A DNA stretch of 64,000 nucleotides. Origin: an uncultured Bdellovibrio sp. Lineage in GTDB: Bacteria > Bdellovibrionota > Bdellovibrionia > Bdellovibrionales > Bdellovibrionaceae. Both the position numbers and the translations under genes were made by a program. The stretch covers positions 416,001 to 480,000 of the forward strand of contig CAWVRN010000001.1 of assembly GCA_963932905.1 (NCBI GenBank), in the 5' to 3' direction. The notes beneath the pieces are model-generated. The model was not told the origin of the DNA and searched no databases. It worked only from the letters and a program-made list of their open reading frames with translations. Positions 8,475-49,055 of the stretch are shown here, piece by piece (position 1 is the first letter of the stretch; each line of letters begins with the position of its first letter).

Positions 8475-8569
8475 GAATTTGTTTGGAATAAATAGAAAAT
8501 TTAAAAAATAGATTTGATTTTAATCAGGTCATCGAGCGTTCGACCATTGTCTAGCCTGGAATTTTTTAC

Positions 8570-8596
8570 TACAATATTTCTAGTAAATTCCGAAAA
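8570..8596 (+). promoter_or_regulatory. Putative sigma28 (FliA) promoter
   Basis: TACA-N16-CCGAAAA; the CCGA starts 13 nt before the ATG at 8603. Confidence 0.5.
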
Positions 8597-8602
8597 AATC
8601 TT

Positions 8603-9385
8603 ATGCCAAGGAAAATTGGTTACTTTACAATCTTAAGTTTTTTTATGATTTGTTTAGATGCCGAATCAGCAGATAACTATAAAGTAAATGCTGCTGAATC
8701 AACTTGCTATAATACAATCAGGGCCATTAAGCACGGAATTTTCAGAAACGAGCGGGATCATATTATTCGTCATGTTCCCTATAATGGTCATGGAATCATT
8801 CTGGATTCTAATTTAATGATAGCATTAAAGGAGAAAGGGTTTGAACACCTTGGCGAATCGTCATGGCACGGACAACTAAAGAAAATGGTTAAAACGGCTA
8901 GCAAGCAAAAAAAGCAAAAATCAAATGTTCCTAGTTTATCTGATCCATTTAGGTTTTGGGTAAGCTCAAAAATAGGGCAAGAAGTCCAAGACGTTGTTAG
9001 AAGAAAAAAAATCTCCTTTGAATTTCCAGAGTCCACAAGAATTCTTCCTATAAACGAACATACAAAAGCAGAATATGATCAAGTTTACAATAAACTGCGA
9101 TCATTAAGTATTGGTGGCGATAAGGTACATGATAATGTGAATGATAGAGATATATTGACCGAGGTATTTTTTTCTAAAACAACGGATAACGTAACTCCTG
9201 TATTCGCGACTGCTGACAAGGGAATTATTAATCCACTATGTAAAACAATCCCCAATTGCGCAAGTGCGCTAAGACGAAATACCATGCGATCAGAATACCG
9301 CGACGGCTTTGATTTTACTATTCATGATGAATCAACTGGAATTTCCCGAACAGTTAGAATCTTGCCAATATATTTAGAAAAATGA
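8603..9385 (+). CDS. Putative secreted PIN-domain nuclease
   Basis: Signal-peptide-like N-terminus. PIN motifs IILDSNL (D68), IGQEV (E127), NDRDIL (D181) and FATADK (D205). Confidence 0.6.
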   Translation: MPRKIGYFTILSFFMICLDAESADNYKVNAAESTCYNTIRAIKHGIFRNERDHIIRHVPYNGHGIILDSNLMIALKEKGFEHLGESSWHGQLKKMVKTASKQKKQKSNVPSLSDPFRFWVSSKIGQEVQDVVRRKKISFEFPESTRILPINEHTKAEYDQVYNKLRSLSIGGDKVHDNVNDRDILTEVFFSKTTDNVTPVFATADKGIINPLCKTIPNCASALRRNTMRSEYRDGFDFTIHDESTGISRTVRILPIYLEK

Positions 9386-33287: not shown

Positions 33288-34466
33288 ATGACGTCTACAA
33301 TTGATCTTTGGATCGAATACATTTTACGCTTTTCTCATTTGGTGGCCGGTATTTCCTGGATCGGTAGTTCGTTTTATTTTATCTGGCTTGATAGCAGTTT
33401 TATGCCACCCGAAAAGCCACGTCATAATGTCGAAGGTGAAGTCTACATGGTTCATGGCGGCTTTTATTACCAAGTGGACAAACGAAAAATTTATCCTGGT
33501 GAAATTCCAAAAACACTTCATTGGTTCAAATGGGAAGCAACCCTAACCTGGATCACGGGATTTTTTCTTTTTGCTTTTTTGTATTACTTAAAAGGCGCGA
33601 CTTTGCTGATTAATCCTGAAGCCCTGGCATTGACTCAGTGGCAAGCGATTGGTTTAAGTTTGGGTTTAATTATTGGCTCTTGGTTTGTTTATGATTTGAT
33701 ATGGAATGCAAATCTGATCAAAGTAAAAGCGATAAGTATTTTTCTTTCGCTGTGCTATTTCGTCGCTATGATTTACGGATTAACGCGAATATTCAGTGGG
33801 CGAGGCGCCTTCATATTGATGGGCGTAATCATGGGAAGCTTGATGTTGTTGAACGTATGGGTTCGAATTCTTCCTGGACAAGCCAAAATGCTTAAAGAAG
33901 CCTTGGCCGGACAAGTTCCCGATTATTCTGTCAGTTTGAAATCTAAAGTGCGATCTGTTCACAATACCTATTTTATTTTTCCTGTTTTGTTCATTATGCT
34001 GAGCAATCACTACCCGGGCATTTATGGTCATCAGTACAATTGGGTGCTGTTAATTATCCTCAGTGTGTCGGGCGCTTTGGTTCGTCATACAATGGTAACT
34101 AAAAACACGAAAGAGCGTTGGCTGCTGATTCCTGCCGCGATTGGACTGATGGCTCTTGTTTTCGTAAGTTCAATTCAAGTAAAATCAAGCTCCAATTCCT
34201 CCATGCCCGTGCCAGATAATATGGATTACGCCTACGTAAGAAACATAGTCGAGGCCCGTTGTCAAAGATGCCATAGCACACATAACACCGATGAAAATTT
34301 CAAAGTTCCCCCGAAAGATGTCGTTCTTGAAACCGAAGATCAGCTCAGAAAACACAAAGACTTAATTATCAAGCAAGTTGAAAACAAAGTCATGCCGCTG
34401 GCGAATTTGACGGGCATGACGGATAGTGAGCGTGAAATTTTGGTCAGTTGGATGAAGAAACAGTAG
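33288..34466 (+). CDS. puuD: Membrane urate hydroxylase with a C-terminal cytochrome c (PuuD family)
   Basis: HLVAGISWIGSSFYFIWLD, VHGGFY, LHWFKWEA, RSVHNTY, MLSNHY; heme motif CQRCH; adjacent to the purine catabolic operon. Confidence 0.9.
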   Translation: MTSTIDLWIEYILRFSHLVAGISWIGSSFYFIWLDSSFMPPEKPRHNVEGEVYMVHGGFYYQVDKRKIYPGEIPKTLHWFKWEATLTWITGFFLFAFLYYLKGATLLINPEALALTQWQAIGLSLGLIIGSWFVYDLIWNANLIKVKAISIFLSLCYFVAMIYGLTRIFSGRGAFILMGVIMGSLMLLNVWVRILPGQAKMLKEALAGQVPDYSVSLKSKVRSVHNTYFIFPVLFIMLSNHYPGIYGHQYNWVLLIILSVSGALVRHTMVTKNTKERWLLIPAAIGLMALVFVSSIQVKSSSNSSMPVPDNMDYAYVRNIVEARCQRCHSTHNTDENFKVPPKDVVLETEDQLRKHKDLIIKQVENKVMPLANLTGMTDSEREILVSWMKKQ

Positions 34467-37400
34467 CTAGTAAACCAGCACGCGATGAATTCCTCCGTCT
34501 GGGAAAACTTTCACCTTAATCTGCTCTATCGTTTCTTGATTAGAAATTAAAAATTCTTTTTTATTTCCGGCAAATGCTTTTACCGTGGTTCTGGCAGCCA
34601 GTTCAACCCACTGTCCATTTTTCAAGCCCTCTAGGCTGATGGCAGACGGGTTGTTGTTCACGAAATATTTAAAATCTAAAACAACTCTTTTTATCACGGT
34701 CGGTTTACCAAGTTTTAAAACAAGTTCTTCGAAATGACCGGGTTTACGACTGCGGGCGGATTCAAATCCATCGAACATGTGAATCGGAGGAAACGGGGAA
34801 ACAACTTGATCGGCCGGTCCGTAATGTTGGTTGCTGACGCTGACCAGACAACCTCCAAACGCAGCAGAGGCCAGATTGATCGGACGCTTTTTATCCATAA
34901 GTCGTTTTATATTTTTTTCGGTCTCTAGCGCCGAAGCGGCATAAGGAATAGTCAGTGGTTTATGAGATTTTGGAATAACTTCAGTAAACCGGGTAGCGGT
35001 GGCTTCTTCGAAGAGCTTATAATTTTTCGCCTCTTCCGAAGGAAGCTCAGAGTACAAACCTAAACGAGATAATCCCCCATCAGGAAATACATTCACTTTA
35101 ATTTTTGAATACGGTTTTTCGCTGAGAGGACTGGTTTGTTTAATTTTCACGACACCGTGGCCAACTAGATTCTTCTTTGGGAGTATCAAATCCCAGTTTT
35201 TTGCCGCTTCATCGTAGCCGTATAACTCAATCGCTTCGACTTGATTTCCATCATGGTATTTGGTGGAAACTTGAATGTAACGAATAGGTCCCGCCTTCTT
35301 CATTTCAAATTCAAGTGTGTGACGATCGCTGGGATTGTGGCGTACGGATTCCCAACTATCCATCACTTTACCCTGAGCACAAAACAACTGCGGATCAAAG
35401 ATGGGCTGAAACGAACTGAATAGGTTATCAGCTTGAGCAAATCGTTCATCCGTAACTGAGATTACTTTTGCACCCACTGCCAAATTGTATTGTGCTAATG
35501 GATCTACGGGTCCTGTTTCAACAATGGGATCTGGACGACACGGAATGAAGGCATCAAAAATAAGGGCTTTATAGCCTCGATTCACAATTTGTTCTTGCGA
35601 GAATTTTTTGGGATCAAATTCAGTGTGGAATTTATCAAAGGAAATTCCGCTCAGATTCAATGTTCTAATCAATTCTTGTGCAACTTCAGCGATAAACGGT
35701 ACGGCACCGTTGTCGCCGTTAGCAAAAATAACAAAACCCAATCCTTGATCAGGTCCCGCATAGCAATGCATGAACAAGGCGCGGAAACCTTCGTTGGCAC
35801 CTTGATGAATGACGATTTTGTTTTCGCCGGCTTCGGCAATAAATATTCCTAGACCCATGAGGGCCCCCATGAATTCAAAACTGCCTTTGTCACGACCATG
35901 CAGCATCAAAGCGGCCGTATCGTGTGAAATAGAACCGGAGCCTTCAAGATTCTGATACGCACGAGTCAAATGGACCAAGAATTGGGCCATATCAGCAGAA
36001 GAACCCAATCCACCTGCCGCAAACGCGGGAAATTGCAATCGGGTGCCTGGTACTTCTTTCTGCCCATCAAAATAGCCGCATGCATAGTTTTTGCCCGGAA
36101 TATTTTTTAAATTAAACGTTAGGTTTTTAAGCCCCATTTCGGCAAAGAAGGGATATGAAATTTCTTGAATGGTTTTCTTTGTGATGGATTCAATTAAATG
36201 TTCTAGAACCAAAAATCCACCGCCAGAGTAACTGAATTTCTTGCCGGGCTCGTTAATCACTTTTACATCTTTGAGCAGATCTTGCCACACTGGCATTGGT
36301 TTTCCTAGCGGATGTCCTTGAACATAGTGACCACTTAATGCCGTGTGATTTAAAAGGTGCTCCAATTGAACCGCATCAGTGCTGAGCCTAAATGAAGAAC
36401 CTGCTTTTGCAAGCAATGCATTTACGGAAGAATCTAAAGCGATATTATTTTTTTTGAAAAACTCTAAACAGTAGGCCGCGGCCAAAGGTTTACTTAATGA
36501 AGCGATTTCAAACATCGTATCGGCTTGCACATGACCTTCGCCTTTACGACGCTCACCAAAGCTTAATGTCTGAGTCGAATCAAACGCGTTAATAGAAACG
36601 CTAGCACCTACGATCTTGTATTTTTCTAATAAATCCGAAATTTTATTTCGCACGTGATCTAGAGGGTGTTCGATCATACGTTTGCGAGTGATTTCCCACA
36701 ATGCCTCCCGAGCGGCACCGATTTCATCTTGAAATGATCTCTGTAGGCGCATTTTAAGAGCATTCAAAATTTCATCTGCTGATTTATCCTTAGCCGAAAT
36801 TAAAAATTTAAATCCAAATTTCTTTAGATATTCGCTGCCTAGATTTAAAAGTTCTTGGCGTTTGGTTTCGTCTCCAGCTAAGACTTTTTGCTGTTCGGAT
36901 GCGGCTTGTGAATCCAAGGTTTTTTTGGCTTCGCCTATATTTCCATGAAAATAAGCGGCGTCGATGATGTCTTGTTTCGAAAAGGATAATATAATTGTTT
37001 TTGCGTGCTTTGTGTTTAAAACAAAACCCTGAGCCATGGTTTTCGCAAATGCCAGCGATCCACAATGCTCGAAATAATAATTTAAACGCTCGATATAGGC
37101 ATCTAGCTTGAATCGTCCCGGCATCAATTCTTGTGCTGTCGTCCAGGGGTTCTGTGAATCGCGGATTGATTTAATAGTAAAAGGCAAAAGTAACTCGGTT
37201 GCAAATTCGGGCGGCTTAGGATCTGTCATTAATTGCAGCATGAGTTTCATTGCGATCGGGTACCAACGGGCTGTTTCGGCCGTGTATTTTACCTGAACGA
37301 TCTTATCTGGATTCGATAGGTCTTTGCGTATGAAGTGCATTTCTTCGTGAACAATTTTAATAAATTCAGCTTTATCAAATCGGCCATGGTAAAGTTCATG

Positions 37401-39128
37401 CCATACTTCCCAGCGGGAACGTTCAGCGGTCGCCAAATCATCCATCACTCGAACGGAAACTCCATTTACGTGCGCCGGCAGGGCCACACAGCCATTGCCG
37501 CTTAACCAATCTGTAAGGTACTGCAAGGATTGAAACACGTTGTAGCGAATTTCATCCGGGTGATTGTTAGCAATAAAATCAGATTCTTTGATGTCGGCCA
37601 CGATCAACGAACGAACATAATTTTCATCGTTTTCTGATAGTCCTTCAATGTCAGCGCCGTGAATGAAATCCAAAATTTGTTTGTGATACTTGGGTTGCAG
37701 CAGCGACGTCACTAGTTCATCAAGTCCAGCACTGTTGCCAGCGCTATGTTGGCGCCATGCTTCGACCAGCGCTAAACCCAAGCGCACAAAATCAGGATGC
37801 GCGACCCAGAATCCTGATAGATCGCGTTTCATTTGTGTAACGACGTCTTTTATGAAGCCAAGTAAGGTCATTTGAAATGAAGGGGACTGCGGATCCGTAT
37901 CGAGTGGCAAAATACCATACATGCCGCCGACTTTGATTCCGCCTCGCCCGCCAACTACTTTGGCAAGCAGGTGATGTGAGGCTTTGATGTATTTAATGAC
38001 GATGTTAGGGTCCGCTTTGACCGGAATTCTGTAGTGTGAGTCTTCTTTGAAAATTCGTGCTGTGGAAGCCAAGAAATCATGCCAGCCCAGGGAAGCGCCG
38101 ACAAAGTAAGGGTGAAGTGCGTCCATAATTTCGTTCACACGTAAGATGGCGCGGGGATTTTCAAGAACAATCATTAGACGAACAGTACCTAACTGATAAC
38201 TAGGGAATTGCTGTTTTATTTTGCTTTCTGCCGTTGAAATCATTTTCGCCAGGTAAGCCGCTTCTTCTTCATTTTCCAGTTTGGGTACATAAAAGCACAG
38301 TGATTCTGGACGATTCCAATTTTTATACAAGTGCAAAGCGAAATCATACAGGTGCAACGGAATAGGATTTCTATCTTGAAATAAAAATGTACATGGCAAT
38401 GCTAAACCAGGAAAACGTTTAATCGGCAAAGCCAAGTGACCTTTTTCTAGTTCGTAATTCTTTTCATCGCCGCTGACTTTTAGAGTGCCGTCAAAACACG
38501 CCGTCAAATTAACGGCCGCATCAATCAGATCGGCCCGCATTGGTGTTTTAGAATCTTCGTCATCGGCGCCCCATTTAGGATTGAACTTTTGAGTTTTCAA
38601 TAACTCTTCGACAATTTTGGGCTCGTTTTTTATTTTACGATGATAGGAATTCATAGCGTTGATAGCTAATTTCGCGCTATCCGGAGGGCCAAACAGAGTT
38701 ACGTGAGGTCCTTGCAGATACGGCGGGATTGCAGCCACCTGAGCACCCTTGGGGCCGAGGTAATGTTTGTCTTTTGCCCCAAGAACAATGCGACCTTGAT
38801 GATCCTCTAAACCAATAATTGTTTTATAATCACTGTCGGTAATTTCACGTTCAAGCGATGTATTAAAATCCGAGCACGCTTTTACCCGTTCATCGATAAA
38901 TTTTCTATCGATGCGACGCTGCTGAAGAACCTTTTTTAAATCGTCTTTTGTTTCTAGGTACAAATCAGAAAGAAATTTCAAGGCGGACGGAGTTTCTAAT
39001 CCTCCGCCTTCGCCGACTTCCACCATTCCATTTACGGATTTAATTGCCGTCGCATTTTTTAATAAATGATCCGCTAGAGGAGCTGGGATGTAGTCGTGGT
39101 AATATTCGATTTCAAAAAAGGATTTCAT
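34467..39128 (-). CDS. Four-domain fusion: malate synthase + OHCU decarboxylase + beta-lactamase-fold serine hydrolase + allantoicase
   Basis: One uninterrupted ORF; likely start ATG 39128, 4 nt after the uraH stop (ORF track gives 39161). Malate synthase motifs ADDEDS, YVPKLE, VLEN, GWHDF, WVAHP, GNGCV, MDDLATAERSR. OHCU decarboxylase motifs HGNIG, SEQ, YLKKFGFKFLI. Serine hydrolase motifs SLSK, YSG, HQG. Allantoicase repeats MDSWESVR/FDGFESAR and PDGG twice. Confidence 0.9.
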   Translation of the reverse strand: MKSFFEIEYYHDYIPAPLADHLLKNATAIKSVNGMVEVGEGGGLETPSALKFLSDLYLETKDDLKKVLQQRRIDRKFIDERVKACSDFNTSLEREITDSDYKTIIGLEDHQGRIVLGAKDKHYLGPKGAQVAAIPPYLQGPHVTLFGPPDSAKLAINAMNSYHRKIKNEPKIVEELLKTQKFNPKWGADDEDSKTPMRADLIDAAVNLTACFDGTLKVSGDEKNYELEKGHLALPIKRFPGLALPCTFLFQDRNPIPLHLYDFALHLYKNWNRPESLCFYVPKLENEEEAAYLAKMISTAESKIKQQFPSYQLGTVRLMIVLENPRAILRVNEIMDALHPYFVGASLGWHDFLASTARIFKEDSHYRIPVKADPNIVIKYIKASHHLLAKVVGGRGGIKVGGMYGILPLDTDPQSPSFQMTLLGFIKDVVTQMKRDLSGFWVAHPDFVRLGLALVEAWRQHSAGNSAGLDELVTSLLQPKYHKQILDFIHGADIEGLSENDENYVRSLIVADIKESDFIANNHPDEIRYNVFQSLQYLTDWLSGNGCVALPAHVNGVSVRVMDDLATAERSRWEVWHELYHGRFDKAEFIKIVHEEMHFIRKDLSNPDKIVQVKYTAETARWYPIAMKLMLQLMTDPKPPEFATELLLPFTIKSIRDSQNPWTTAQELMPGRFKLDAYIERLNYYFEHCGSLAFAKTMAQGFVLNTKHAKTIILSFSKQDIIDAAYFHGNIGEAKKTLDSQAASEQQKVLAGDETKRQELLNLGSEYLKKFGFKFLISAKDKSADEILNALKMRLQRSFQDEIGAAREALWEITRKRMIEHPLDHVRNKISDLLEKYKIVGASVSINAFDSTQTLSFGERRKGEGHVQADTMFEIASLSKPLAAAYCLEFFKKNNIALDSSVNALLAKAGSSFRLSTDAVQLEHLLNHTALSGHYVQGHPLGKPMPVWQDLLKDVKVINEPGKKFSYSGGGFLVLEHLIESITKKTIQEISYPFFAEMGLKNLTFNLKNIPGKNYACGYFDGQKEVPGTRLQFPAFAAGGLGSSADMAQFLVHLTRAYQNLEGSGSISHDTAALMLHGRDKGSFEFMGALMGLGIFIAEAGENKIVIHQGANEGFRALFMHCYAGPDQGLGFVIFANGDNGAVPFIAEVAQELIRTLNLSGISFDKFHTEFDPKKFSQEQIVNRGYKALIFDAFIPCRPDPIVETGPVDPLAQYNLAVGAKVISVTDERFAQADNLFSSFQPIFDPQLFCAQGKVMDSWESVRHNPSDRHTLEFEMKKAGPIRYIQVSTKYHDGNQVEAIELYGYDEAAKNWDLILPKKNLVGHGVVKIKQTSPLSEKPYSKIKVNVFPDGGLSRLGLYSELPSEEAKNYKLFEEATATRFTEVIPKSHKPLTIPYAASALETEKNIKRLMDKKRPINLASAAFGGCLVSVSNQHYGPADQVVSPFPPIHMFDGFESARSRKPGHFEELVLKLGKPTVIKRVVLDFKYFVNNNPSAISLEGLKNGQWVELAARTTVKAFAGNKKEFLISNQETIEQIKVKVFPDGGIHRVLVY

Positions 39129-39132
39129 AGTA

Positions 39133-39456
39133 CTAGCTGCCTCGGTAGGTGCTGTAACCATATGGGCTTAACAATAAAGGCACGTGGTATTTTCTGTTTG
39201 TGTCTGTGATATTGAACGCAACGGGTACAGCTAAAAAAAACGGAGTTAGATTTTGCTTCTTAAAGTAGTTTTCAATTTCAAAAGTTAAACGGTATTGCGC
39301 GATTTCATAGGGGCAATCAAAATTGATTCGTCCATCACTATTAGTTTTATCTTGTTTTACTTGTGACCACTGATTTCCATTTAATTTTTCTAACGTCACA
39401 GTGACATCTTTAGCTGGCATGCCCAAATTGATGTCCAAAATATGAGTACTAATCAT
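39133..39456 (-). CDS. uraH: 5-hydroxyisourate hydrolase (transthyretin-like)
   Basis: ISTHILD, TNSDGR, YHVPLLLSPYGYSTYRGS signature. Start moved to ATG 39456 (AAAGGA RBS). Confidence 0.96.
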   Translation of the reverse strand: MISTHILDINLGMPAKDVTVTLEKLNGNQWSQVKQDKTNSDGRINFDCPYEIAQYRLTFEIENYFKKQNLTPFFLAVPVAFNITDTNRKYHVPLLLSPYGYSTYRGS

Positions 39457-39457
39457 G

Positions 39458-40246
39458 TTACGATCCTTTGTTTTCTGATAATTTAGATTTATACGATAGT
39501 ATCTGCGCAGCGATACTAATGGCAATTTCGGGCGGCGTGTTGTCACCGAAATCTAGCCCAATCGGGCAATGTAGTCGCTGAAGAGCCTCATCGGAAACCC
39601 CGAGCTTGCGCAGTTCACCTTTGATCTTTTCACCTTTAAGTTTTGAGCCTATAACGCCAAGAAATGAAAAACGTTGATGCTGCTTCAGGGCTTTCTCTAG
39701 AACGGGAACATCGGCTGCATGTCCTTGAGTCAGCGACATTAAATAAGTTCCGTCGGGTAATGCGTCTACATGATTTGCCAAATTGTCTGTTTGAATTTTT
39801 TTTATGTTGAATGAATCTGGCAATTTATCTACCCATTCTTTGCGGTTATCAAAAACTTGTAGCTGACATGACCACGTTTGCATGACTCGGCACAGTTCCT
39901 GCGAAACATGTCCTGCACCAAAGATCGCCACCGACCAATTACTAAAGAACTGCGTATCAAAAAATACGCTGACCTCACCACCGCAGGTCATTCCAATATC
40001 AGTCTGTAAATTATAAGTTCCCATTGAAGGAGCCGATTTCGCTTGCAGCATTTCAACAGCGCGTTTGATACAAAACCCTTCAATTTTGCCACCGCCTACG
40101 GTTCCAAATCGTAATCCCTCTTTGGTCACCAGCATCTTAGCACCGACTTCTTGAGGTGCACTACCTCGGACGTTTACCAGGGTTACGATCACGTGATCTG
40201 TATGACTGCGGGATACATCACTCAGATGTTCAAGCCAAACGGTCAC
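39458..40246 (-). CDS. xdhC: Xanthine dehydrogenase accessory protein
   Basis: GSAPQEVGAKM, GTVGGG, GMTCGG, FGAGHV, GVIGSK, CPIG, PPEIAISIAA. Confidence 0.93.
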   Translation of the reverse strand: MTVWLEHLSDVSRSHTDHVIVTLVNVRGSAPQEVGAKMLVTKEGLRFGTVGGGKIEGFCIKRAVEMLQAKSAPSMGTYNLQTDIGMTCGGEVSVFFDTQFFSNWSVAIFGAGHVSQELCRVMQTWSCQLQVFDNRKEWVDKLPDSFNIKKIQTDNLANHVDALPDGTYLMSLTQGHAADVPVLEKALKQHQRFSFLGVIGSKLKGEKIKGELRKLGVSDEALQRLHCPIGLDFGDNTPPEIAISIAAQILSYKSKLSENKGS

Positions 40247-42603
40247 GGCGTTAACTCTTTCATTTTCATATAAATCTGCTCTTGAGTGGCCGGGATTTTC
40301 AATTTCACAGGTTTATCTAGTTTGGCGACGGCATTTTTTGGTTTATAGTAACTGAGTGCATTTTTCACGGCCGACCAAACGGAAATCGCAAGTAAAAGTG
40401 GCGGCTCACCGACCGCTTTGCTGGCGCGAACGTTACGCACATTAATTTGATTATCAATGAGATGGCATTTAAATACGCGCGGGATATCTTGCACGCTGGG
40501 GATTTTATAAGTACTTGGTGTGTTCGACAGCAGTCGACCATTTTTATAGAATAAGTTTTCTGTAGTTACCCAGCCCATTCCTTGTACAAAGGCACCGGTT
40601 ACTTGCCCATGATCGATGGCCTCATTAATTGGACGTCCTAGATCCATCAGGATTTCCGAGCGTAACACTTTTAATTCACCTGTGTAACGATCGATTGAAA
40701 CTTCGCTGGCCGCTACGCCGTTAGTGAAATAGAAGAATGGGCTACCTTGACCAGTTTCCTTATTATAGAAAATTCCGGGGTATTTGAAATAACCCTGCTG
40801 AGTTAGCGATTGACGATTTAAGTAGGCTTCTAAAACGAGTTCACTAAACGCGATGGTTTCTTTCGGATTTGAATTATCGTACACTTGACCATTTTGAAAT
40901 TCGATCGTTTGCCAATGTTGAACGGCTTCGATTTGAATTTCTGGAGCGGTACCGGCGCCGGCGGTGGGTTTACCACGCCACGCTTTTGGGCGCGCTAGCA
41001 TGGCCTTGGCCACCTTGGCTAGTCGTTCGCGTATACCTTGTGCGGCCGTTAAAGCCGCTTGGCAGTTGATATCGCTACCACTAGAGGCTGCTGTTGCTGA
41101 CGTATTTGGAATTTTCTCGGTAGATGTCGTCATTACTTTTACATCTTCAATAGGAATAGAAAAACATTCCGCAACGACCTGTGCGATTTTGATATTCACA
41201 CCCTGGCCCATTTCGGTGGCGCCTGTAGACACCTGAACGGATCCGTCCATGTGCACATTCACAAGCGCACTACCTTGATTTAAAAAACGAGTTGTAAATG
41301 AAATGCCAAACTTTACTGCTGTTACGGACAAACCTCGATACGTCGAATGATGACTGGCATTGTGGTCGTCTATTTCTTTGCGCCACTGTTTGTATTGCGT
41401 TTGTTTTTCAATATCCGTAAATAGTTGCGGCAAAACACTATCTTCTATTTTTTGCCCATAAGGAGTCGTTTGGTCTTTTTGATATGTGTTTATTTTTCTG
41501 ATTTCTAAAGAGTCTTTTTTCAGAAAAACAGCGATGTCTTCAATAATGGATTCGATAGTGGCAACACCTTTGGGGCCGCCGAATCCACGAAATGCTGTAT
41601 TGGGAGCCGTGTGAGTTTTACAAACTTGTCCGGCCACTTTAAAATTAGGAATGAAGTAGGCGTTATCTAAATGAAGCATAGCGCGTTCCATAATGGCGGT
41701 CGATAGATCGGCGTAGGCGCCGCCGTCAGAAAATAACTCGGCTTTCAAAGCCGTGATTTTCCCTGAATTATCAAAACCCACTTCGTAGAAATTTTTAAAT
41801 GGATTGCGTTTGCCTGTCATGATCATGTCATCATCTTTAGTCAAAATGATGCGTGCCGGGCGTTTTAGTTTCTGTGCCACAAGTGCCGCAAATACGGCAA
41901 AAGGGGCCGCTTGAGATTCTTTGCCTCCAAATGCGCCGCCCATACGCTTAACAACACATACAACTTGGTGATGTCGTAAACCTAAAGCCTCGGCGACTAG
42001 ATGTTGAACTTCCGTAGGATGTTGAGACGAGGAATGAATTTCAATTTGATCGTCTTCTTTAGGGTAAGCAATGGATGCTTGAGATTCTAAATAGAAATGC
42101 TCTTGGCCCGCGATCTCGATGTCCCCTTTTAGTTTATTTGGCGCCGATTTCAATGCATCGTCGACATCACCTCGCTGAATTGTACGCAAAGGACCGATGA
42201 AAAATTTAGTATCGATCGCTTTTTGTAAATCAAGAGTGGGCTCTAGTTCTTCGATCTCTAGTTTGATTTTCGCTTTGGCCTCGTGAAAGATATCCCGTTT
42301 TGTTGAGGCTATTATGGCAATCGGTTCACCGACATACTGAACTTGGTCTTCCGCCAAGAAAACCTGATCGTGAAAAATTGAACCCCACAAATTGTGCTTT
42401 AAATCTTTGTGCGTATAAACACCCAATATTTCGGGCATGGCCAAGCACGCAGTGAAATCTAGTTTCTTAATTTTGCCATAAGCCACGGGACTATAAAACA
42501 CGTCCACGAATACTTCGCCATGAACCAAGGGGCGGTCATCTATGTATTCGGCTTTTCCGACTACGTAACTTCGTCCTGAATCGTGATAGGCGGATTTACT
42601 CAT
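40243..42603 (-). CDS. xdhB: Xanthine dehydrogenase molybdopterin-binding subunit
   Basis: QEHFYLE, RMGGAFGGKESQ, AFRGFGGP, KFGISFT, EMGQG, SATAASSG, SKAVGEPP. Confidence 0.95.
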   Translation of the reverse strand: MSKSAYHDSGRSYVVGKAEYIDDRPLVHGEVFVDVFYSPVAYGKIKKLDFTACLAMPEILGVYTHKDLKHNLWGSIFHDQVFLAEDQVQYVGEPIAIIASTKRDIFHEAKAKIKLEIEELEPTLDLQKAIDTKFFIGPLRTIQRGDVDDALKSAPNKLKGDIEIAGQEHFYLESQASIAYPKEDDQIEIHSSSQHPTEVQHLVAEALGLRHHQVVCVVKRMGGAFGGKESQAAPFAVFAALVAQKLKRPARIILTKDDDMIMTGKRNPFKNFYEVGFDNSGKITALKAELFSDGGAYADLSTAIMERAMLHLDNAYFIPNFKVAGQVCKTHTAPNTAFRGFGGPKGVATIESIIEDIAVFLKKDSLEIRKINTYQKDQTTPYGQKIEDSVLPQLFTDIEKQTQYKQWRKEIDDHNASHHSTYRGLSVTAVKFGISFTTRFLNQGSALVNVHMDGSVQVSTGATEMGQGVNIKIAQVVAECFSIPIEDVKVMTTSTEKIPNTSATAASSGSDINCQAALTAAQGIRERLAKVAKAMLARPKAWRGKPTAGAGTAPEIQIEAVQHWQTIEFQNGQVYDNSNPKETIAFSELVLEAYLNRQSLTQQGYFKYPGIFYNKETGQGSPFFYFTNGVAASEVSIDRYTGELKVLRSEILMDLGRPINEAIDHGQVTGAFVQGMGWVTTENLFYKNGRLLSNTPSTYKIPSVQDIPRVFKCHLIDNQINVRNVRASKAVGEPPLLLAISVWSAVKNALSYYKPKNAVAKLDKPVKLKIPATQEQIYMKMKELTP

Positions 42604-44024
42604 TAGAAATTCTCCTGCACAAATCGATCGAATAAATCTAGGCAGATTTTCGAACGAAATTCAGATGATCCACGCAAATCGGAAATCGGGGTGATGCTGG
42701 CGGCAATCATTTGCTTTGCTTGATCAGCCAAAGCCGACGTCATTTCTTGTCCTTCCAGAACTTTTTCCACATCAAACAGACGTAGGGCCTTAGGACCAAC
42801 GCCACCATAAGCAATTTTGGCTTTTTCGATTTTTTTGTTCTGAGTTTGGAAAACAAAACTTGAATTGACACATGAAATGTCTAAATCACGTCGCTGCGAG
42901 ACTTTGAATAGCCCTATCTTACTTGATTGAGAGTTTGGAATTTTAAAACGAATACTTGTGATAAACTCATCATCTTTTAAATCAAAACTTTTGTAGCCTT
43001 TGATAAAATCAGTGAGTGGCACACTACGCAGACCTTTTGGGCTGAACAGTTCTACGACGGCATCTGCTGTTAACAAATAGGGTGTGGTATCTGCAATGGG
43101 TGACCCATTGGCTAAGTTACCCACAAGGGTGGCCGCATTTTTAATTTGAGGTGATGCGAAGATATTTAAAAACTCAGCAAACTTAGGGCTGCGACCTTCT
43201 AGAAACTTTTGAAGTGTTGTCAAATTTACCCGCGCGCCAACGATCACTTGATCAGCGTCTTGTTTCAGCGCGTACATTTCAGGAATTAAATGCAGACTCA
43301 TTAAATTAATGCCGGGATTTTTACCCTTGTTAATTTGAACACCGATATCGGTCGCGCCAGAAAAGATACGAACTTTAGGATGTAATTTTTTGTATTCAGC
43401 CGCTTGAGTTAATGTAGTGGGCGCAAAAAATTCTTTCTCACCCACAGTAATTTTAATCGGTATTGTTTGGTTGGCCTCTAAATCTTTGGTCAGTTTTTCA
43501 TAGTTATAACATGACTTTAATGGCGCGACTTTTTTGGTGTCTACGGCCATAGCCGCATTGATGATAGGCTGGTATCCAGTGCAACGGCAAAGATTGCCCG
43601 TTACATAGTTTTTAACTTTCTGTTCGGAAATGTTTTTCGTGTTTTCAAACATGCTCGATAAGGCCATGACGAAACCCGGTGTGCAGAATCCACACTGGCC
43701 GCCAAAATTTTTAACCATCGCATCTTGAACTTCGGACAATTGATTATTTTTTTCTAAACCTTCGACGCTAATTATATGCGACATATCCATTAAGAACGAT
43801 GTGCTGATACACGAATTGATGGACATAAATTTATCGGCGTCAGTAGAATGACGTCGATACAGGATTGTGCAGGCACCACAGTCACCTTCGGCGCATACCA
43901 CTTTGGTACCTGTTAGACCGACTTCGTATCGCAATAAGCTACTAAACGGCATAAACGCGCGTTCGCTGCTGATTTTGTGTACGGTTCCGTTAATCGTTAG
44001 TACAATATAGTCTCTGACTTGCAT
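42603..44024 (-). CDS. xdhA: Xanthine dehydrogenase small subunit ([2Fe-2S] and FAD domains)
   Basis: GTKVVCAEGDCGAC, QCGFCTPG, GNLCRCTGY, FASPQIKNAATLVGN. Confidence 0.95.
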   Translation of the reverse strand: MQVRDYIVLTINGTVHKISSERAFMPFSSLLRYEVGLTGTKVVCAEGDCGACTILYRRHSTDADKFMSINSCISTSFLMDMSHIISVEGLEKNNQLSEVQDAMVKNFGGQCGFCTPGFVMALSSMFENTKNISEQKVKNYVTGNLCRCTGYQPIINAAMAVDTKKVAPLKSCYNYEKLTKDLEANQTIPIKITVGEKEFFAPTTLTQAAEYKKLHPKVRIFSGATDIGVQINKGKNPGINLMSLHLIPEMYALKQDADQVIVGARVNLTTLQKFLEGRSPKFAEFLNIFASPQIKNAATLVGNLANGSPIADTTPYLLTADAVVELFSPKGLRSVPLTDFIKGYKSFDLKDDEFITSIRFKIPNSQSSKIGLFKVSQRRDLDISCVNSSFVFQTQNKKIEKAKIAYGGVGPKALRLFDVEKVLEGQEMTSALADQAKQMIAASITPISDLRGSSEFRSKICLDLFDRFVQENF

Positions 44025-44056: not shown

Positions 44057-44557
44057 TTAGTAACTGATCTTATCGACTTTAGATGACCAAATTTGAAATA
44101 CTTTAAGTGCCTCGTCGCGCAACATAGCTTCCATTGGTATTTTTCGTTTTTCAAGTGGCTTAGGAATTTCTTGATAAATAAAATCATCATCGAACTGAAT
44201 TCCAGCCGCATCTGTTTTTGTATTAGCGAAATAAATTTTGTTGATTCGTGCCCAGTAGATAGCGGAAAGACACATGGGACATGGCTCGCAACTGGTGTAA
44301 ATTTCGCACTCTTCTAGACTGAACGTATTTAATTTTTGGCAGGCTTGACGAATAGCTTCAACTTCCGCATGAGCTGTCGGGTCATTGTTTGTAGTTACTT
44401 TGTTCCAGCCTTCACCGACGATGACGTTATCTTTGACGATCACAGCACCAAATGGTCCCCCATTTAATGAAAGGACGTTGTTTTTCGACAACTCGATCGC
44501 ACGTCTCATAAAGTTTAAGCGTAATTCATTTTTTTGTTTCATTTTAGTAGAGTTCAT
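44057..44557 (-). CDS. guaD: Guanine deaminase (cytidine-deaminase fold, B. subtilis GuaD type)
   Basis: GGPFGAVIV, DPTAHAEV, SCEPCPMC, FDDDFIY; immediately upstream of xdhA. Confidence 0.9.
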   Translation of the reverse strand: MNSTKMKQKNELRLNFMRRAIELSKNNVLSLNGGPFGAVIVKDNVIVGEGWNKVTTNNDPTAHAEVEAIRQACQKLNTFSLEECEIYTSCEPCPMCLSAIYWARINKIYFANTKTDAAGIQFDDDFIYQEIPKPLEKRKIPMEAMLRDEALKVFQIWSSKVDKISY

Positions 44558-44644: not shown

Positions 44645-45253
44645 TTAAGGTTGGCCATTCCTGTATATGATTTGCAGCAAATTTTCATCTTTCTGCATAT
44701 ATTTATAGCCGTAAGAAGCAAGGTAGTTGCTGGCTTCCGCCTGCTCGGGGCTTAAATAAATTGCAAATCGTGATAGCTCGGGGAATGAAAACGGCTTTTT
44801 GGACCAACGGTGGCCGGTGGCGGATGGCCCCGCTTTGGATAAAAATAGAATTTCGGTTTTTAATCTGTCAATAGGGCAGGTATTTTCGCCAGATTTTGCA
44901 GTTTTTGCGTACGTCGATTTTTGAATCGCCTTTAATTTTTTCAATAGAAATTTTTGTTCATCTAACGGTAGATTGACGGTCGCGGGTTTGCCGTGATCGG
45001 GAGCAAAAACCGCGGTTTCGTCAGCTATACAATAACCAGCAATCCAAACCCATGATCCTGAGGCTAAACCGATAGATTTAGATTCCACTAATTTAGGATA
45101 ACCTTTATGGAAGTGAAATTCTTTTTCCAGCGGTGCCAAATCCAATTTAGCTTTCTTCTTATTTTTGTGGCTGGAAAGAACGATAACTTGTTGAGCAGGA
45201 TCTGCCAGTGCAATCAAACCTAAAAGAAAAAAACTAAGAACCAATTTTAACAT
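44645..45253 (-). CDS. Secreted hypothetical protein
   Basis: 202-aa ORF with a signal peptide, 8 nt downstream of the aminopeptidase gene. Confidence 0.65.
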   Translation of the reverse strand: MLKLVLSFFLLGLIALADPAQQVIVLSSHKNKKKAKLDLAPLEKEFHFHKGYPKLVESKSIGLASGSWVWIAGYCIADETAVFAPDHGKPATVNLPLDEQKFLLKKLKAIQKSTYAKTAKSGENTCPIDRLKTEILFLSKAGPSATGHRWSKKPFSFPELSRFAIYLSPEQAEASNYLASYGYKYMQKDENLLQIIYRNGQP

Positions 45254-46640: not shown

Positions 46641-47261
46641 ATGATTCATGCCATATTTGTTTTAATTTTTGCATTTGCGATTGGTCAGTTAATCATTGTG
46701 AAGACGAACGATAAGTTTTCAACACGTCGGGATCCGGCGGCGATTAGACAGACTTACGATTTCACTAACTTAAAGGGAAATGCTTTAGATATAGCCTTGA
46801 AACAAAAAATGCTGGGCGACCTGGAAGTGGTTAAGACCGCTGATAATTTTGGGATCTCTTTTGGTCATTTTGCGTTTTCAACTTCAGACGGGCAAAAATT
46901 TTTGGGTTGTGAGTATTACGAAAAAGTAGTGGCTGTCTTTGAAGCGGAAGGGTCAGCAGTCAGCGGTCGAAAGTCCACGATGGAGATCTCGGGCCCTTGC
47001 AAATACTCTGAAAATTTGACGAAAATTCAAGCTGCCCTTATCCCTATCAAAAAAATTATGGGTGATACGCCTCAGGATGGCGAGATGACTTTTCAAGGGG
47101 ACATTCCAGTTAACGTTAAATTTCAAAATTTAACGGATTCATGGCCGACGCAGTGGAATTTAGTGAATGTTCGAATGGAATCACCTCAATACGTTTTTAT
47201 TATCGATCGTAACGAGATTTCCAAAATTATGGGACAGCCCTTGCTGATTTCTGTTCAATAA
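46641..47261 (+). CDS. Membrane-anchored or exported hypothetical protein
   Basis: 206-aa ORF with an N-terminal hydrophobic helix and a Cys pair. Confidence 0.7.
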   Translation: MIHAIFVLIFAFAIGQLIIVKTNDKFSTRRDPAAIRQTYDFTNLKGNALDIALKQKMLGDLEVVKTADNFGISFGHFAFSTSDGQKFLGCEYYEKVVAVFEAEGSAVSGRKSTMEISGPCKYSENLTKIQAALIPIKKIMGDTPQDGEMTFQGDIPVNVKFQNLTDSWPTQWNLVNVRMESPQYVFIIDRNEISKIMGQPLLISVQ

Positions 47262-47275
47262 GATAATAATTTCAC

Positions 47276-48268
47276 ATGATTTTTCCTACGGTAACGCCAC
47301 CTTACTGGGCGCCTGAAGGCCATTCGCAAACATTAGTGGCTCATTTAGCTGCGCCATTAATTGGGCCTAAAATTTCTTTTCATGACGAAAATAAAAAACT
47401 GATTTCCTGTTTAGAAGACGATGATAAATTGCTTATCAAATATCATCTGCGTGATCAAAAAAAATGGGTTTTGCTAGCTCATGGTTTGGCTGGGGATAGT
47501 GAATCGCAATACATCAAGCGAATGACTCGTTTAGCATTAGAGAAAAATATTTCGGTTTTACGTTTTAATCATCGTAACTGTGGTGAATCTGTGGGGTATG
47601 CTAACAAGACTTACCATGCTGGTCGTGGTGAAGATATTTACGCGGCCGCAAACTGGGTTCGTTCCAATTATCCTGGTAGTGAAATCATTGTTGTCGGTTT
47701 TTCATTAAGTGGAAATACAGTGCTCGACATGGCGATTCGTTTTGAAGATAAGATTGATATCAAGTGTACCATCGCCGTCAATGCACCGATTGATTTGACT
47801 CAAGCATCAATTAATATCGCACAAAAAGAAAACTTAGCTTACAATAAATACTTTGCTCGACTTTTGCATCTTTCCAACATGAATTTGGCGAAAAAACAAA
47901 AAGGTGGCTTGGGCGAGGTGATTCGAAATACGAAGGTTCCGCGATTTGCGGTTCTTGGTGATTTCGATCAGTTGTTTGTGGCGCCATTAAACGGTTTCAA
48001 GGATGCGTGGGATTACTACAAGCAATGTTCTACAATCGATCGCTTAGATGCGATCAAATCACCCGTAACCATACTGATGGCAAAGGATGATCCGATAGTT
48101 CCATTTCGAATGTATGAAGGTAAAAAATTTAATTCTAATTTTCAAGTTAGGATTGAAAAGACGGGTGGGCATTTGGGCTATCTCTCCCAATCGAAAACAC
48201 CACTCGGCGATAATCGCTGGATGGATTGGTACCTGATTGAACAAATCGTCGAGACGTTTAAAAAATAA
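47276..48268 (+). CDS. YheT-like alpha/beta hydrolase
   Basis: GHSQT, HGLAG, GFSLSG nucleophile elbow, AKDDP, GGHLG. Confidence 0.88.
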   Translation: MIFPTVTPPYWAPEGHSQTLVAHLAAPLIGPKISFHDENKKLISCLEDDDKLLIKYHLRDQKKWVLLAHGLAGDSESQYIKRMTRLALEKNISVLRFNHRNCGESVGYANKTYHAGRGEDIYAAANWVRSNYPGSEIIVVGFSLSGNTVLDMAIRFEDKIDIKCTIAVNAPIDLTQASINIAQKENLAYNKYFARLLHLSNMNLAKKQKGGLGEVIRNTKVPRFAVLGDFDQLFVAPLNGFKDAWDYYKQCSTIDRLDAIKSPVTILMAKDDPIVPFRMYEGKKFNSNFQVRIEKTGGHLGYLSQSKTPLGDNRWMDWYLIEQIVETFKK

Positions 48269-49055
48269 CACCATCTGGTTTTAATTCATCTGCTAACTTC
48301 ATTTCGGCTTCAGATTGAATCGGCCCAAGAAATACTAATTTCTTACGACGTCTCATTTCCGTAATCATCGATTCATCAACCAATGGTCGATTCAAATACG
48401 ATATAGGAGCGATAAAAACATCACCGCGAATAGAAATAGCCGCCTCCAAACCCAATGTAGCAAAGGATTTCAGGCGAGTGACTTCGGGAATTGACGTTCC
48501 GTATACCCACATCGGTTTTAATTCCTTGATGGCTTTGATGACAATGTCGACGGGTGAATTAATGAGAATGCGGTCTTCCAATTTATTTTTTTCAACAAAA
48601 CTAATGACGTCTTTATGAATGTCAGTCTCGTTCGACAAAATATTTAAAATATAGTGGTCAGTGGTGATGACTTGAAGGGCCTTTTCTAATGGCGTTATGT
48701 TTTCATAAAATTCATTTAGTTCTGCCAGTTTGTAACCGTGAACAAATTTGCCTTTGAATTTCTTTTTGTCGCGCGCCCAAGTCATGAATGCGTCCACATT
48801 AAAATTGTAATCTGAAATCAACACGCGATCGGCGGTCATATAAACATTGATCCATGTCAGGGTCGGTTTGCTGTCAGGTCGCACATGATCTTTAGAGAAA
48901 ACACCCACAGTGATGGGGCGGTTGGTGGTCATGGCACTTGACAGGAAAGGATGCTCAAATGGTTTATAAGGCAACGAAAGGCCCCACATGCGAACGATCA
49001 AGCCAATTAAAAGCGCTATTACTACTGTACCTAAACTAATCAAAAATAACCGCAT
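48258..49055 (-). CDS. Membrane-anchored GDPD/PLC-like TIM-barrel protein, apparently degenerate
   Basis: N-terminal TM, 'VYMTADRVLI' and C-terminal 'PDGVIF' resemble the GDPD fold; the canonical HRG motif is not seen. Confidence 0.5.
   Translation of the reverse strand: MRLFLISLGTVVIALLIGLIVRMWGLSLPYKPFEHPFLSSAMTTNRPITVGVFSKDHVRPDSKPTLTWINVYMTADRVLISDYNFNVDAFMTWARDKKKFKGKFVHGYKLAELNEFYENITPLEKALQVITTDHYILNILSNETDIHKDVISFVEKNKLEDRILINSPVDIVIKAIKELKPMWVYGTSIPEVTRLKSFATLGLEAAISIRGDVFIAPISYLNRPLVDESMITEMRRRKKLVFLGPIQSEAEMKLADELKPDGVIF

Follow-up and report, generated by a model that had tools for sequence, protein, structure and literature searches.

We analysed a 64,000-nucleotide stretch of DNA (hereafter the window) from an uncultured Bdellovibrio sp. 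(assembly GCA_963932905.1, contig CAWVRN010000001.1, positions 416,001 to 480,000), which carries on its minus strand a single open frame of 1564 codons, counted from the first ATG, whose predicted product joins enzymes of urate breakdown to a domain of the beta-lactamase/DD-peptidase fold. An earlier note on this DNA had placed that domain at 35650-36660 (residues ~835-1171) and proposed that it is a new allantoinase. Pfam analysis of the fusion gave, from N to C terminus, matches to MS_TIM-barrel (residues 251-463), MS_C (536-655), OHCU_decarbox (718-829; OHCU, 2-oxo-4-hydroxy-4-carboxy-5-ureidoimidazoline), Beta-lactamase (PF00144, 837-1155) and two Allantoicase repeats (from 1230), and an NCBIfam scan was consistent with this assignment of modules. 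The segment singled out in the note is the PF00144 match and lies, as the note had it, between the OHCU decarboxylase and allantoicase modules. The order OHCU decarboxylase, serine hydrolase domain (hereafter the domain), allantoicase is that of the pathway. The fusion and its parts are the following:

34467-39161, minus strand: four-module fusion open reading frame (ORF)
37062-39161, minus strand: malate-synthase-like module, residues 1-700 (Pfam PF01274 and PF20659)
36669-37061, minus strand: OHCU decarboxylase module, residues 701-831 (Pfam PF09349 at 718-829), which makes (S)-allantoin
35487-36668, minus strand: serine hydrolase domain of the beta-lactamase/DD-peptidase fold, residues 832-1225, candidate allantoinase
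36489-36500, minus strand: S888-L-S-K891, SxxK motif with the proposed serine nucleophile and general-base lysine
36222-36230, minus strand: Y978-S-G980, at the YxN position
35781-35807, minus strand: H1119-Q-G-A-N1123-x-G-F-R1127, at the KTG/HxG position (H-Q-G at 35799-35807), with family-specific Asn and Arg
34470-35486, minus strand: allantoicase module of two repeats, residues 1226-1564 (Pfam PF03561, 153.9 bits)

With NCBIfam models, the allantoicase module scored 174 bits (TIGR02961), under the cut-off of 277.9, and the OHCU decarboxylase module scored 67 bits (NF010372), also under its cut-off. The latter module covers only positions 39-154 of the 155 positions of PF09349. In the fused relatives that were scanned the match mostly starts at about profile position 38-43 (from 21 in P0260 and from 28 in P0317), and OHCU decarboxylases that stand alone in this phylum span the full profile (1-155). 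Since the fused modules start late in the profile, their N-terminal part is missing or replaced in the fusion.

The domain is a predicted serine hydrolase

The domain scores 107.7 bits with PF00144 (cut-off 27, E value 9.1e-31), and the motifs that the earlier note had picked out, S888-L-S-K, Y978-S-G and H1119-Q-G, are found exactly where it had placed them. Set against the motifs that we take to define the PF00144 fold, namely SxxK, YxN and K/H-T/S-G, the domain has the SxxK, the Tyr and an H-Q-G, and in place of the Asn of YxN it has an invariant Gly. Specifically, Y978-S-G980 aligns with Y-N-N of IS11 and Y-S-N of alkaline D-peptidase, and H1119-Q-G aligns with H-G-G of IS11 and falls on a beta strand (model residues 283-292) in a structural model of the domain. 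We aligned 206 members of the family with domain coverage of at least ~85% and more than 130 bits (130 from four-module proteins, 24 intermediate and 52 stand-alone). The residues conserved in 100% of them include S888 and K891 (206 of 206 sequences) together with S890, H945, Y978, G980, A1049, G1050, F1097, F1107, H1119, N1123, G1125, G1136 and N1194; S979 and R1127 round to 100% and are lower in one architecture group each (0.99 and 0.96).

The structural model, built with AlphaFold2 for residues 832-1225 on an 85-row alignment, has a mean predicted local distance difference test score of 95.8. In it S888 (model S57) directly precedes a helix formed by residues 890-904 (model residues 59-73), as in known members of the fold. 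Among known structures, Foldseek placed the model nearest to R61 DD-peptidase, IS11 esterase, D-stereospecific hydrolase, ADC class C beta-lactamases, ClbP, D-amino acid amidase and LACTB with TM scores of 0.65-0.72 at ~20% identity and an E value of 8e-21 to 3pte; by sequence, the closest solved chain reached an E value of only 1.7e-10.

At the level of sequence, the domain is conserved to the same degree as the two accepted enzyme modules beside it, with a median identity to 110 distant fusion homologues of 50.3%, compared with 49.6% for OHCU decarboxylase and 47.5% for allantoicase. The family forms a group of its own, with 97 representatives at E < 1e-30, beyond which only generic relatives of ~30% identity are met, and a tree of 117 rows built with FastTree, from which 97 of the 130 rows for four-module proteins were omitted, splits it from eight generic relatives, used as outgroup, with a support of 100. 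A protein atlas search with the domain returned only generic clusters named 'Beta-lactamase domain-containing protein'. Taken together, the motifs and the model suggest that residues 832-1225 form a catalytically active serine hydrolase with the class C beta-lactamase/DD-peptidase fold, a prediction that we hold with fair confidence as one part of the joint reading of the domain as an allantoinase.

The domain and AllB are complementary in Bdellovibrionota

Allantoinase is a textbook step for which two unrelated enzyme families, AllB and PuuE, are known. The earlier note had remarked that both are missing from the window, and this extends to the whole assembly (4.55 Mb, 98.6% complete), which we searched with profiles for AllB, PuuE, AllA and AllC. 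PuuE (TIGR03212) and AllA had no match in the assembly, no AllB (TIGR03178) scored over its cut-off there, and the AllB model found no match within the fusion (NCBIfam), so that a whole-genome check for allB, puuE and allA, as envisaged in the note, yields none. The sole match to the AllB model in the assembly, at 271 bits against a cut-off of 357.85, was considered as a hidden allantoinase and rejected: it is a dihydroorotase, with 677 bits for NF006559 where the cut-off is 482, and we rejected it also because similar sub-cut-off paralogues coexist with a true AllB in two other genomes (G213 and G258). A route through allantoate amidohydrolase (AllC) was likewise rejected for this genome, as AllC has no match in the assembly.

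We then surveyed an even sample of 301 Bdellovibrionota genomes (G000 included). The domain is present in 34 of them, allantoicase in 61 and AllB, over its cut-off, in 27, and PuuE is over its cut-off in none of the 301, its one weak match being in a genome without allantoicase. The 61 genomes with allantoicase comprise 33 with the domain only, 26 with AllB only, one with both (G270) and one with a truncated AllB (G163, 83% complete in 400 contigs, where a 253-codon AllB fragment of 312 bits adjoins allantoicase). Among these 61 genomes, the domain and AllB are complementary. No over-cut-off AllB occurs without allantoicase in the sample, and AllB directly adjoins allantoicase, for example at 12550-13869 and 13947-14888 of contig C96 in G091. 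That all 34 genomes with the domain also hold allantoicase is trivial, because the two are fused. Apart from G270, no known allantoinase was found in the domain-carrying genomes searched. The domain thus shows the phyletic pattern expected of a non-homologous replacement, being present where the known enzymes are absent and in the same pathway context. The mutual exclusion with allB and puuE raised in the earlier note therefore holds in outline (33 genomes with the domain only against 26 with AllB only, and PuuE in none) and fails in G270.

Both types occur inside one genus in two cases (g83, G073 versus G224; g99, G236 versus G215), which indicates that the swap happened more than once, although related genomes do not count as independent observations. 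In an AllB-type cluster, that of G133, the order is AllB, allantoicase, OHCU decarboxylase, 5-hydroxyisourate (HIU) hydrolase and DUF6986. The fusion type has the same set, with the domain in place of AllB and the malate-synthase-like module in place of DUF6986. This arrangement extends to the whole sample, in that every allantoicase genome carries one of AllB and the domain (the AllB of G163 being truncated) together with one of AllA, DUF6986 and the malate-synthase-like module.

The malate-synthase-like module probably takes the place of AllA and DUF6986

AllA is found in four of the 301 genomes and DUF6986 (PF22484) in 35. Where allantoicase occurs without the domain (27 genomes), DUF6986 is present in 24 and AllA in the remaining three; none of the 34 genomes with the domain has either. 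AllA by itself is too rare to separate an allantoinase role of the domain from a role in the ureidoglycolate step, a gap that was filled by the search for DUF6986. In 32 of the 34 domain genomes the domain is part of an open frame of 1413-1645 codons, which leaves room for the malate-synthase-like module, and in the other two (G107 and G270) that module is a separate, adjoining ORF. The distribution of AllA and DUF6986 therefore suggests that it is the malate-synthase-like module that swaps with these two, and the domain that swaps with AllB.

A malate-synthase-like protein of zebrafish (DrMSL) has been identified as a ureidoglycolate lyase by nuclear magnetic resonance, circular dichroism and kinetics (Dembech et al., PNAS 2023, PMC10120013). 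According to that paper, DrMSL has the substitutions Arg276Ile and Trp365Met, an unconserved acetyl-CoA site and a C-terminal peroxisomal signal (PTS1), and the ureidoglycolate lyase group of malate-synthase-like proteins is stated to be eukaryote-only. When the module of the fusion is aligned to E. coli malate synthase A (3cuz), and positions are counted from that alignment, Arg276 is replaced by Trp, and Glu250, Asp278 and Trp365 are kept. The likeness to DrMSL thus concerns the substituted Arg276 position (Trp here, Ile in DrMSL), and the difference lies in Trp365, kept in the fusion and Met in DrMSL. A canonical malate synthase A is encoded elsewhere in the same genome (335.6 bits, compared with 71.7 for the module). 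By analogy with DrMSL, the module is probably a ureidoglycolate lyase and not a malate synthase. On this precedent the last ureide step would go to the N-terminal module, and allantoinase would be the only step left over.

The malate-synthase-like module also has many stand-alone bacterial homologues of ~680-700 residues and 50-60% identity, named ones being from Desulfogranum, Desulfosediminicola and Persicimonas caeni and others from metagenome-assembled genomes labelled Bradymonadaceae and Myxococcota. The best 120 of 641 relatives of the module are bacterial where named, and are proteins of ~690 residues or fragments of fusions.

DUF6986, which in the AllB-type urate cluster of G133 lies at 7887-9263 of locus L008 (contig G133:C2, minus strand), matches the malate-synthase-like module weakly in BLASTP, with 21% identity across 108 residues (E 8e-5), and this weak alignment spans the conserved Glu and the G-x-x-D-F/Y motif. 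We regard DUF6986 as a candidate for an unrecognised ureidoglycolate lyase. Eleven of the 301 genomes have DUF6986 and no allantoicase.

The domain precedes allantoicase in joined proteins

Pfam scans of 51 representatives of the family showed the domain and allantoicase in a single chain in 24, and in all 24 the domain is N-terminal to allantoicase. The joined forms consist of the domain and allantoicase (nine or ten), of these with OHCU decarboxylase (eight) and of these with the malate synthase module as well (five). A further 24 of the 51 are stand-alone domains, and two are unrelated proteins with multiple beta-lactamase domains. One joined protein, from a transcriptome in EukProt of the dinoflagellate Polykrikos kofoidii (P0273, 1004 residues), has Beta-lactamase, Ureidoglycolate lyase (AllA, 114 bits) and Allantoicase in that order. 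Named members with one or two modules include KAL1519419 of Prymnesium parvum and a protein of the copepod Oithona nana.

A C-terminus of the form [SA][KR][LM] is a PTS1 peroxisomal signal, and the oxidation and breakdown of urate in eukaryotes take place in the peroxisome. Such an ending (SKL, SRL, ARL, AKL, ARM or AKM) is present in 23 of the 52 stand-alone homologues, and in P0273 too. In the tree, one group of 51 rows (support 86) contains all 23 of these sequences together with P0273, and another, of 56 rows (support 86), contains 32 of the 33 four-module rows.

When the fusion was used to search for long proteins, 621 matches were obtained, and the best 120 of the 621 all contain Beta-lactamase, Allantoicase and OHCU_decarbox. 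The malate synthase barrel is present in 116 of these best 120, the four exceptions being on contigs of less than 5 kb. When each species was represented by one genome, a relative of the fusion was encoded in 219 of the 245 stretches that matched the pattern. Isolates with names that carry the fusion include Peredibacter sp. HCB2-198, Bacteriovorax sp. PP10 and Bdellovibrio sp. HCB2-146.

Genes for urate and xanthine oxidation neighbour the fusion

The genes around the fusion in the window are these:

33288-34466, plus strand: PuuD-type membrane urate oxidase (Pfam Urate_ox_N, 313.6 bits)
39133-39546, minus strand: HIU hydrolase (TIGR02962, 133 bits against a cut-off of 87.45), its frame ending Y-R-G-S and then TAG
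39458-40246, minus strand: XdhC, xanthine dehydrogenase gene (Pfam)
40243-42603, minus strand: XdhB, xanthine dehydrogenase gene (Pfam)
42603-44024, minus strand: XdhA, xanthine dehydrogenase gene (Pfam)
44057-44557, minus strand: deaminase of the cytidine deaminase fold (Pfam dCMP_cyt_deam_1; best NCBIfam match TadA, 87.9 bits against a cut-off of 150), which may be a guanine deaminase

We compared 35 related loci of at least 15 kb each by tblastn and by ORF clusters. PuuD lies beside the fusion in 35 of 35, and HIU hydrolase in 35 by tblastn and 34 by ORF clusters; XdhC and XdhB are each present in 14 and XdhA in 11. No further gene family is conserved beside the fusion in these loci. Thus homologues of the domain are linked to purine genes, as the earlier note would have it, through PuuD beside the fusion and through the allantoicase that follows the domain in joined chains.

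Proposed mechanism

The observations above lead us to propose that the domain is a serine acyl-enzyme allantoinase that converts (S)-allantoin to allantoate, a prediction that we consider probable. The evidence for this function (EC 3.5.2.5) is indirect and consists of the complementarity with AllB, the fusion to allantoicase and the logic of the pathway. The substrate and the acyl-enzyme chemistry of the domain are inferred, as is the role of the malate-synthase-like module in the last step. The comparative genomics supports the allantoinase role that the earlier note had proposed for the domain.

According to this model, PuuD urate oxidase and HIU hydrolase, encoded by neighbouring genes, would supply OHCU, from which the OHCU decarboxylase module would make (S)-allantoin and hand it to the adjacent domain. 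There, Lys891 and Tyr978 would activate Ser888, which would attack the endocyclic (ring) amide carbonyl of the hydantoin of (S)-allantoin, so that the ring opens and an allantoyl-serine ester is formed on the enzyme. Water would then free allantoate, which would pass to the C-terminal allantoicase module. This module would take off one urea to give ureidoglycolate, and the N-terminal malate-synthase-like module would take off the second urea to give glyoxylate. The loss of the Asn of YxN, together with the gain of the invariant residues H945, N1123, R1127 and N1194, would suit a small polar substrate that has no acylamido side chain.

Several points weigh against this proposal. The Asn of YxN is Gly in the domain, and the substrates of its closest relatives of solved structure are peptides, esters and beta-lactams and not hydantoins; hydantoin chemistry is plausible but would be without precedent in the PF00144 fold. 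G270 is the sole genome of the 301 with both AllB and the domain. Its AllB is fused to OHCU decarboxylase in a protein of 617 residues (locus L012, 7383-9236, minus strand; contig G270:C16), and another contig of this genome carries PuuD, a protein of 772 residues consisting of the domain and allantoicase, an ORF for a single allantoicase repeat, a separate malate-synthase-like ORF (735 residues) and two aminotransferases of class V. The complementarity is also in part a contrast between two alternative gene modules, and related genomes are not independent. Finally, P0273 is known from one ORF of a transcriptome and is the lone member of its cluster, so that it could be a chimaeric assembly.

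Alternative explanations

The domain might instead have an accessory or other role, for example trimming another ureide or a peptide, correcting a side product or serving as a structural or oligomerising spacer, with allantoin being opened by an unrecognised enzyme encoded elsewhere in the genome or, slowly, without one. The substrate of the domain is a prediction, the fold is versatile (peptidases, esterases, amidases and acyltransferases are among the Foldseek matches), and our search reached those families that are represented in the profile libraries, all of which leave room for such a role. We nevertheless consider it unlikely. The catalytic residues are invariant in the 206 aligned sequences, which speaks against a purely structural role. 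Moreover, an accessory role would not explain why no allantoicase genome of the sample lacks both AllB and the domain (the AllB of G163 being truncated), and it is further disfavoured by the order of the OHCU decarboxylase, domain and allantoicase modules, which follows the pathway, and by the 35 neighbourhoods, where no other conserved gene offers itself.

A second possibility, given as the alternative in the earlier note, is that the domain acts on ureidoglycolate, as an amidohydrolase or lyase that yields glyoxylate, and that allantoin is opened otherwise, for instance by the malate-synthase-like module. We know of no ring-opening amidase activity in the malate synthase type of TIM-barrel Mg enzyme, which counts against such a division of labour. 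Amidohydrolysis of ureidoglycolate is an amide cleavage that should be within reach of a serine hydrolase, and AllA is absent from the genome studied here and from all 34 genomes with the domain, so that the classical gene for this step is lacking there too. However, AllA is equally absent from the 24 of 27 allantoicase genomes without the domain that carry DUF6986 instead, the dinoflagellate protein P0273 holds the domain alongside AllA and allantoicase, and the step appears to have a set of enzymes of its own in AllA, DUF6986 and the malate-synthase-like module. In addition, DrMSL is a proven ureidoglycolate lyase (PMC10120013), and the module of the fusion likewise lacks Arg276. A ureidoglycolate role for the domain is thus less likely than an allantoinase role, and we judge it distinctly improbable.

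Lastly, that the domain is a resistance-type beta-lactamase or a cell-wall DD-peptidase fused to purine enzymes by accident, as its weak NCBIfam matches to class C beta-lactamase (NF033085, 47.4 bits) and AmpH (32.7 bits) might suggest, is scarcely credible. Those scores fall far short of the respective cut-offs (415 and 266), and the domain, which does not bring a signal peptide with it, sits inside a protein whose other parts are cytoplasmic enzymes. The Asn of YxN is missing as well, and the fusion is kept in the 219 genome stretches and in hundreds of database proteins.

Relation to known enzymes

As an allantoinase, the domain would share with AllB/DAL1 its place in the pathway and the reaction proposed. 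AllB adjoins allantoicase in sister genomes of the phylum, and where it does so the fusion type has the domain joined to allantoicase in its place. AllB differs in belonging to the amidohydrolase superfamily and in being metal-dependent, with a metal centre in a TIM barrel, whereas the domain has an unrelated fold and a serine nucleophile. PuuE, for its part, is polysaccharide-deacetylase-like and metal-independent, and its fold too is unrelated to that of the domain. PuuE, reportedly described in 2008 by Ramazzina and colleagues, is said to be a precedent for a non-homologous family that replaces AllB in urate clusters.

With its relatives in PF00144, which we take to be family S12 of MEROPS, the domain shares more than the fold. 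R61 DD-peptidase, the class C beta-lactamases ADC and MOX, IS11 esterase, D-amino acid amidase and alkaline D-peptidase have the SxxK, the Tyr of YxN and the HxG/KTG strand in common with it, and by analogy with them an acyl-serine mechanism would be expected in the domain. It differs from them in sequence (~20% identity), in the invariant Gly in place of the Asn of YxN and in the additional invariant residues H945, N1123, R1127 and N1194. Unlike these relatives, it is predicted to be cytoplasmic or peroxisomal and is fused to allantoicase.

Our reading from sequence comparison is thus that a familiar fold has been put to a new use, the catalysis of a known reaction. To our knowledge, which on this point was not supplemented by a search, the opening of a hydantoin ring has not been described for the beta-lactamase/DD-peptidase fold and would be the first case; a third allantoinase family on this fold would be a clear example of convergent recruitment. 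In the open full-text literature, subscription journals being outside the search, we found no description of the fusion, of an allantoinase of the beta-lactamase fold or of DUF6986. A term search in a 2026 review on the enzymes of urate catabolism (PMC13751858) likewise gave nothing on these, with no occurrence of 'serine' or 'beta-lactamase'.

If the assignment is correct, the domain is the allantoinase of many Bdellovibrionota, given the 33 of 61 sampled allantoicase holders that carry it alone. The one-of-each rule seen across the phylum would likewise point to DUF6986 as a further ureide enzyme candidate. Databases at present label proteins with the domain 'serine hydrolase', 'malate synthase' or 'CubicO group peptidase', so that the recycling of purine nitrogen is likely to be underestimated in predatory bacteria and, probably, in protists of marine waters. 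More broadly, and with somewhat more caution, we lean towards the view that the domain founds a third, convergent allantoinase family, using an acyl-serine on the fold of penicillin-binding proteins, which would be present in many Bdellovibrionota and in several eukaryotic lineages (dinoflagellates, haptophytes and copepods, as stand-alone peroxisomal or allantoicase-fused forms) and which, with the malate-synthase-like module and DUF6986, would complete most of the ureide pathways that appear incomplete.

Further features of the locus and the start of the fusion

Beyond the deaminase gene, three ORFs at 44645-45253 (minus strand), 46641-47261 (plus strand) and 48258-49055 (minus strand), of 202, 206 and 265 residues, have no Pfam match at E <= 0.001. 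The 202-residue ORF, the only one of the three that was scanned with NCBIfam, has no match there either. Near the fusion elsewhere, the three ORFs recur in 1, 0 and 0 of 80 loci, respectively. Relatives that carry names put the window in Bdellovibrionaceae, phylum Bdellovibrionota. The closest named contigs to the locus, labelled 'Bdellovibrionaceae bacterium UBA2351/UBA2316', have 88-90% identity in the domain.

Although we have numbered residues from the first ATG of the frame, the true start of the fusion is probably the second ATG, at nucleotide 39128 (residue 12), which would give a protein of 1553 residues. This start is favoured because it lies 4 nucleotides past the TAG of the upstream HIU hydrolase gene and has GAGG upstream of it; a database protein that is 100% identical to the fusion also has 1553 residues. 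At the junction between the stop of the HIU hydrolase gene and the start of the fusion (39126-39135, minus strand), the ORF as listed therefore begins with 11 codons that are probably untranslated, and, with the second ATG as start, S888 would probably be S877 in the real protein.

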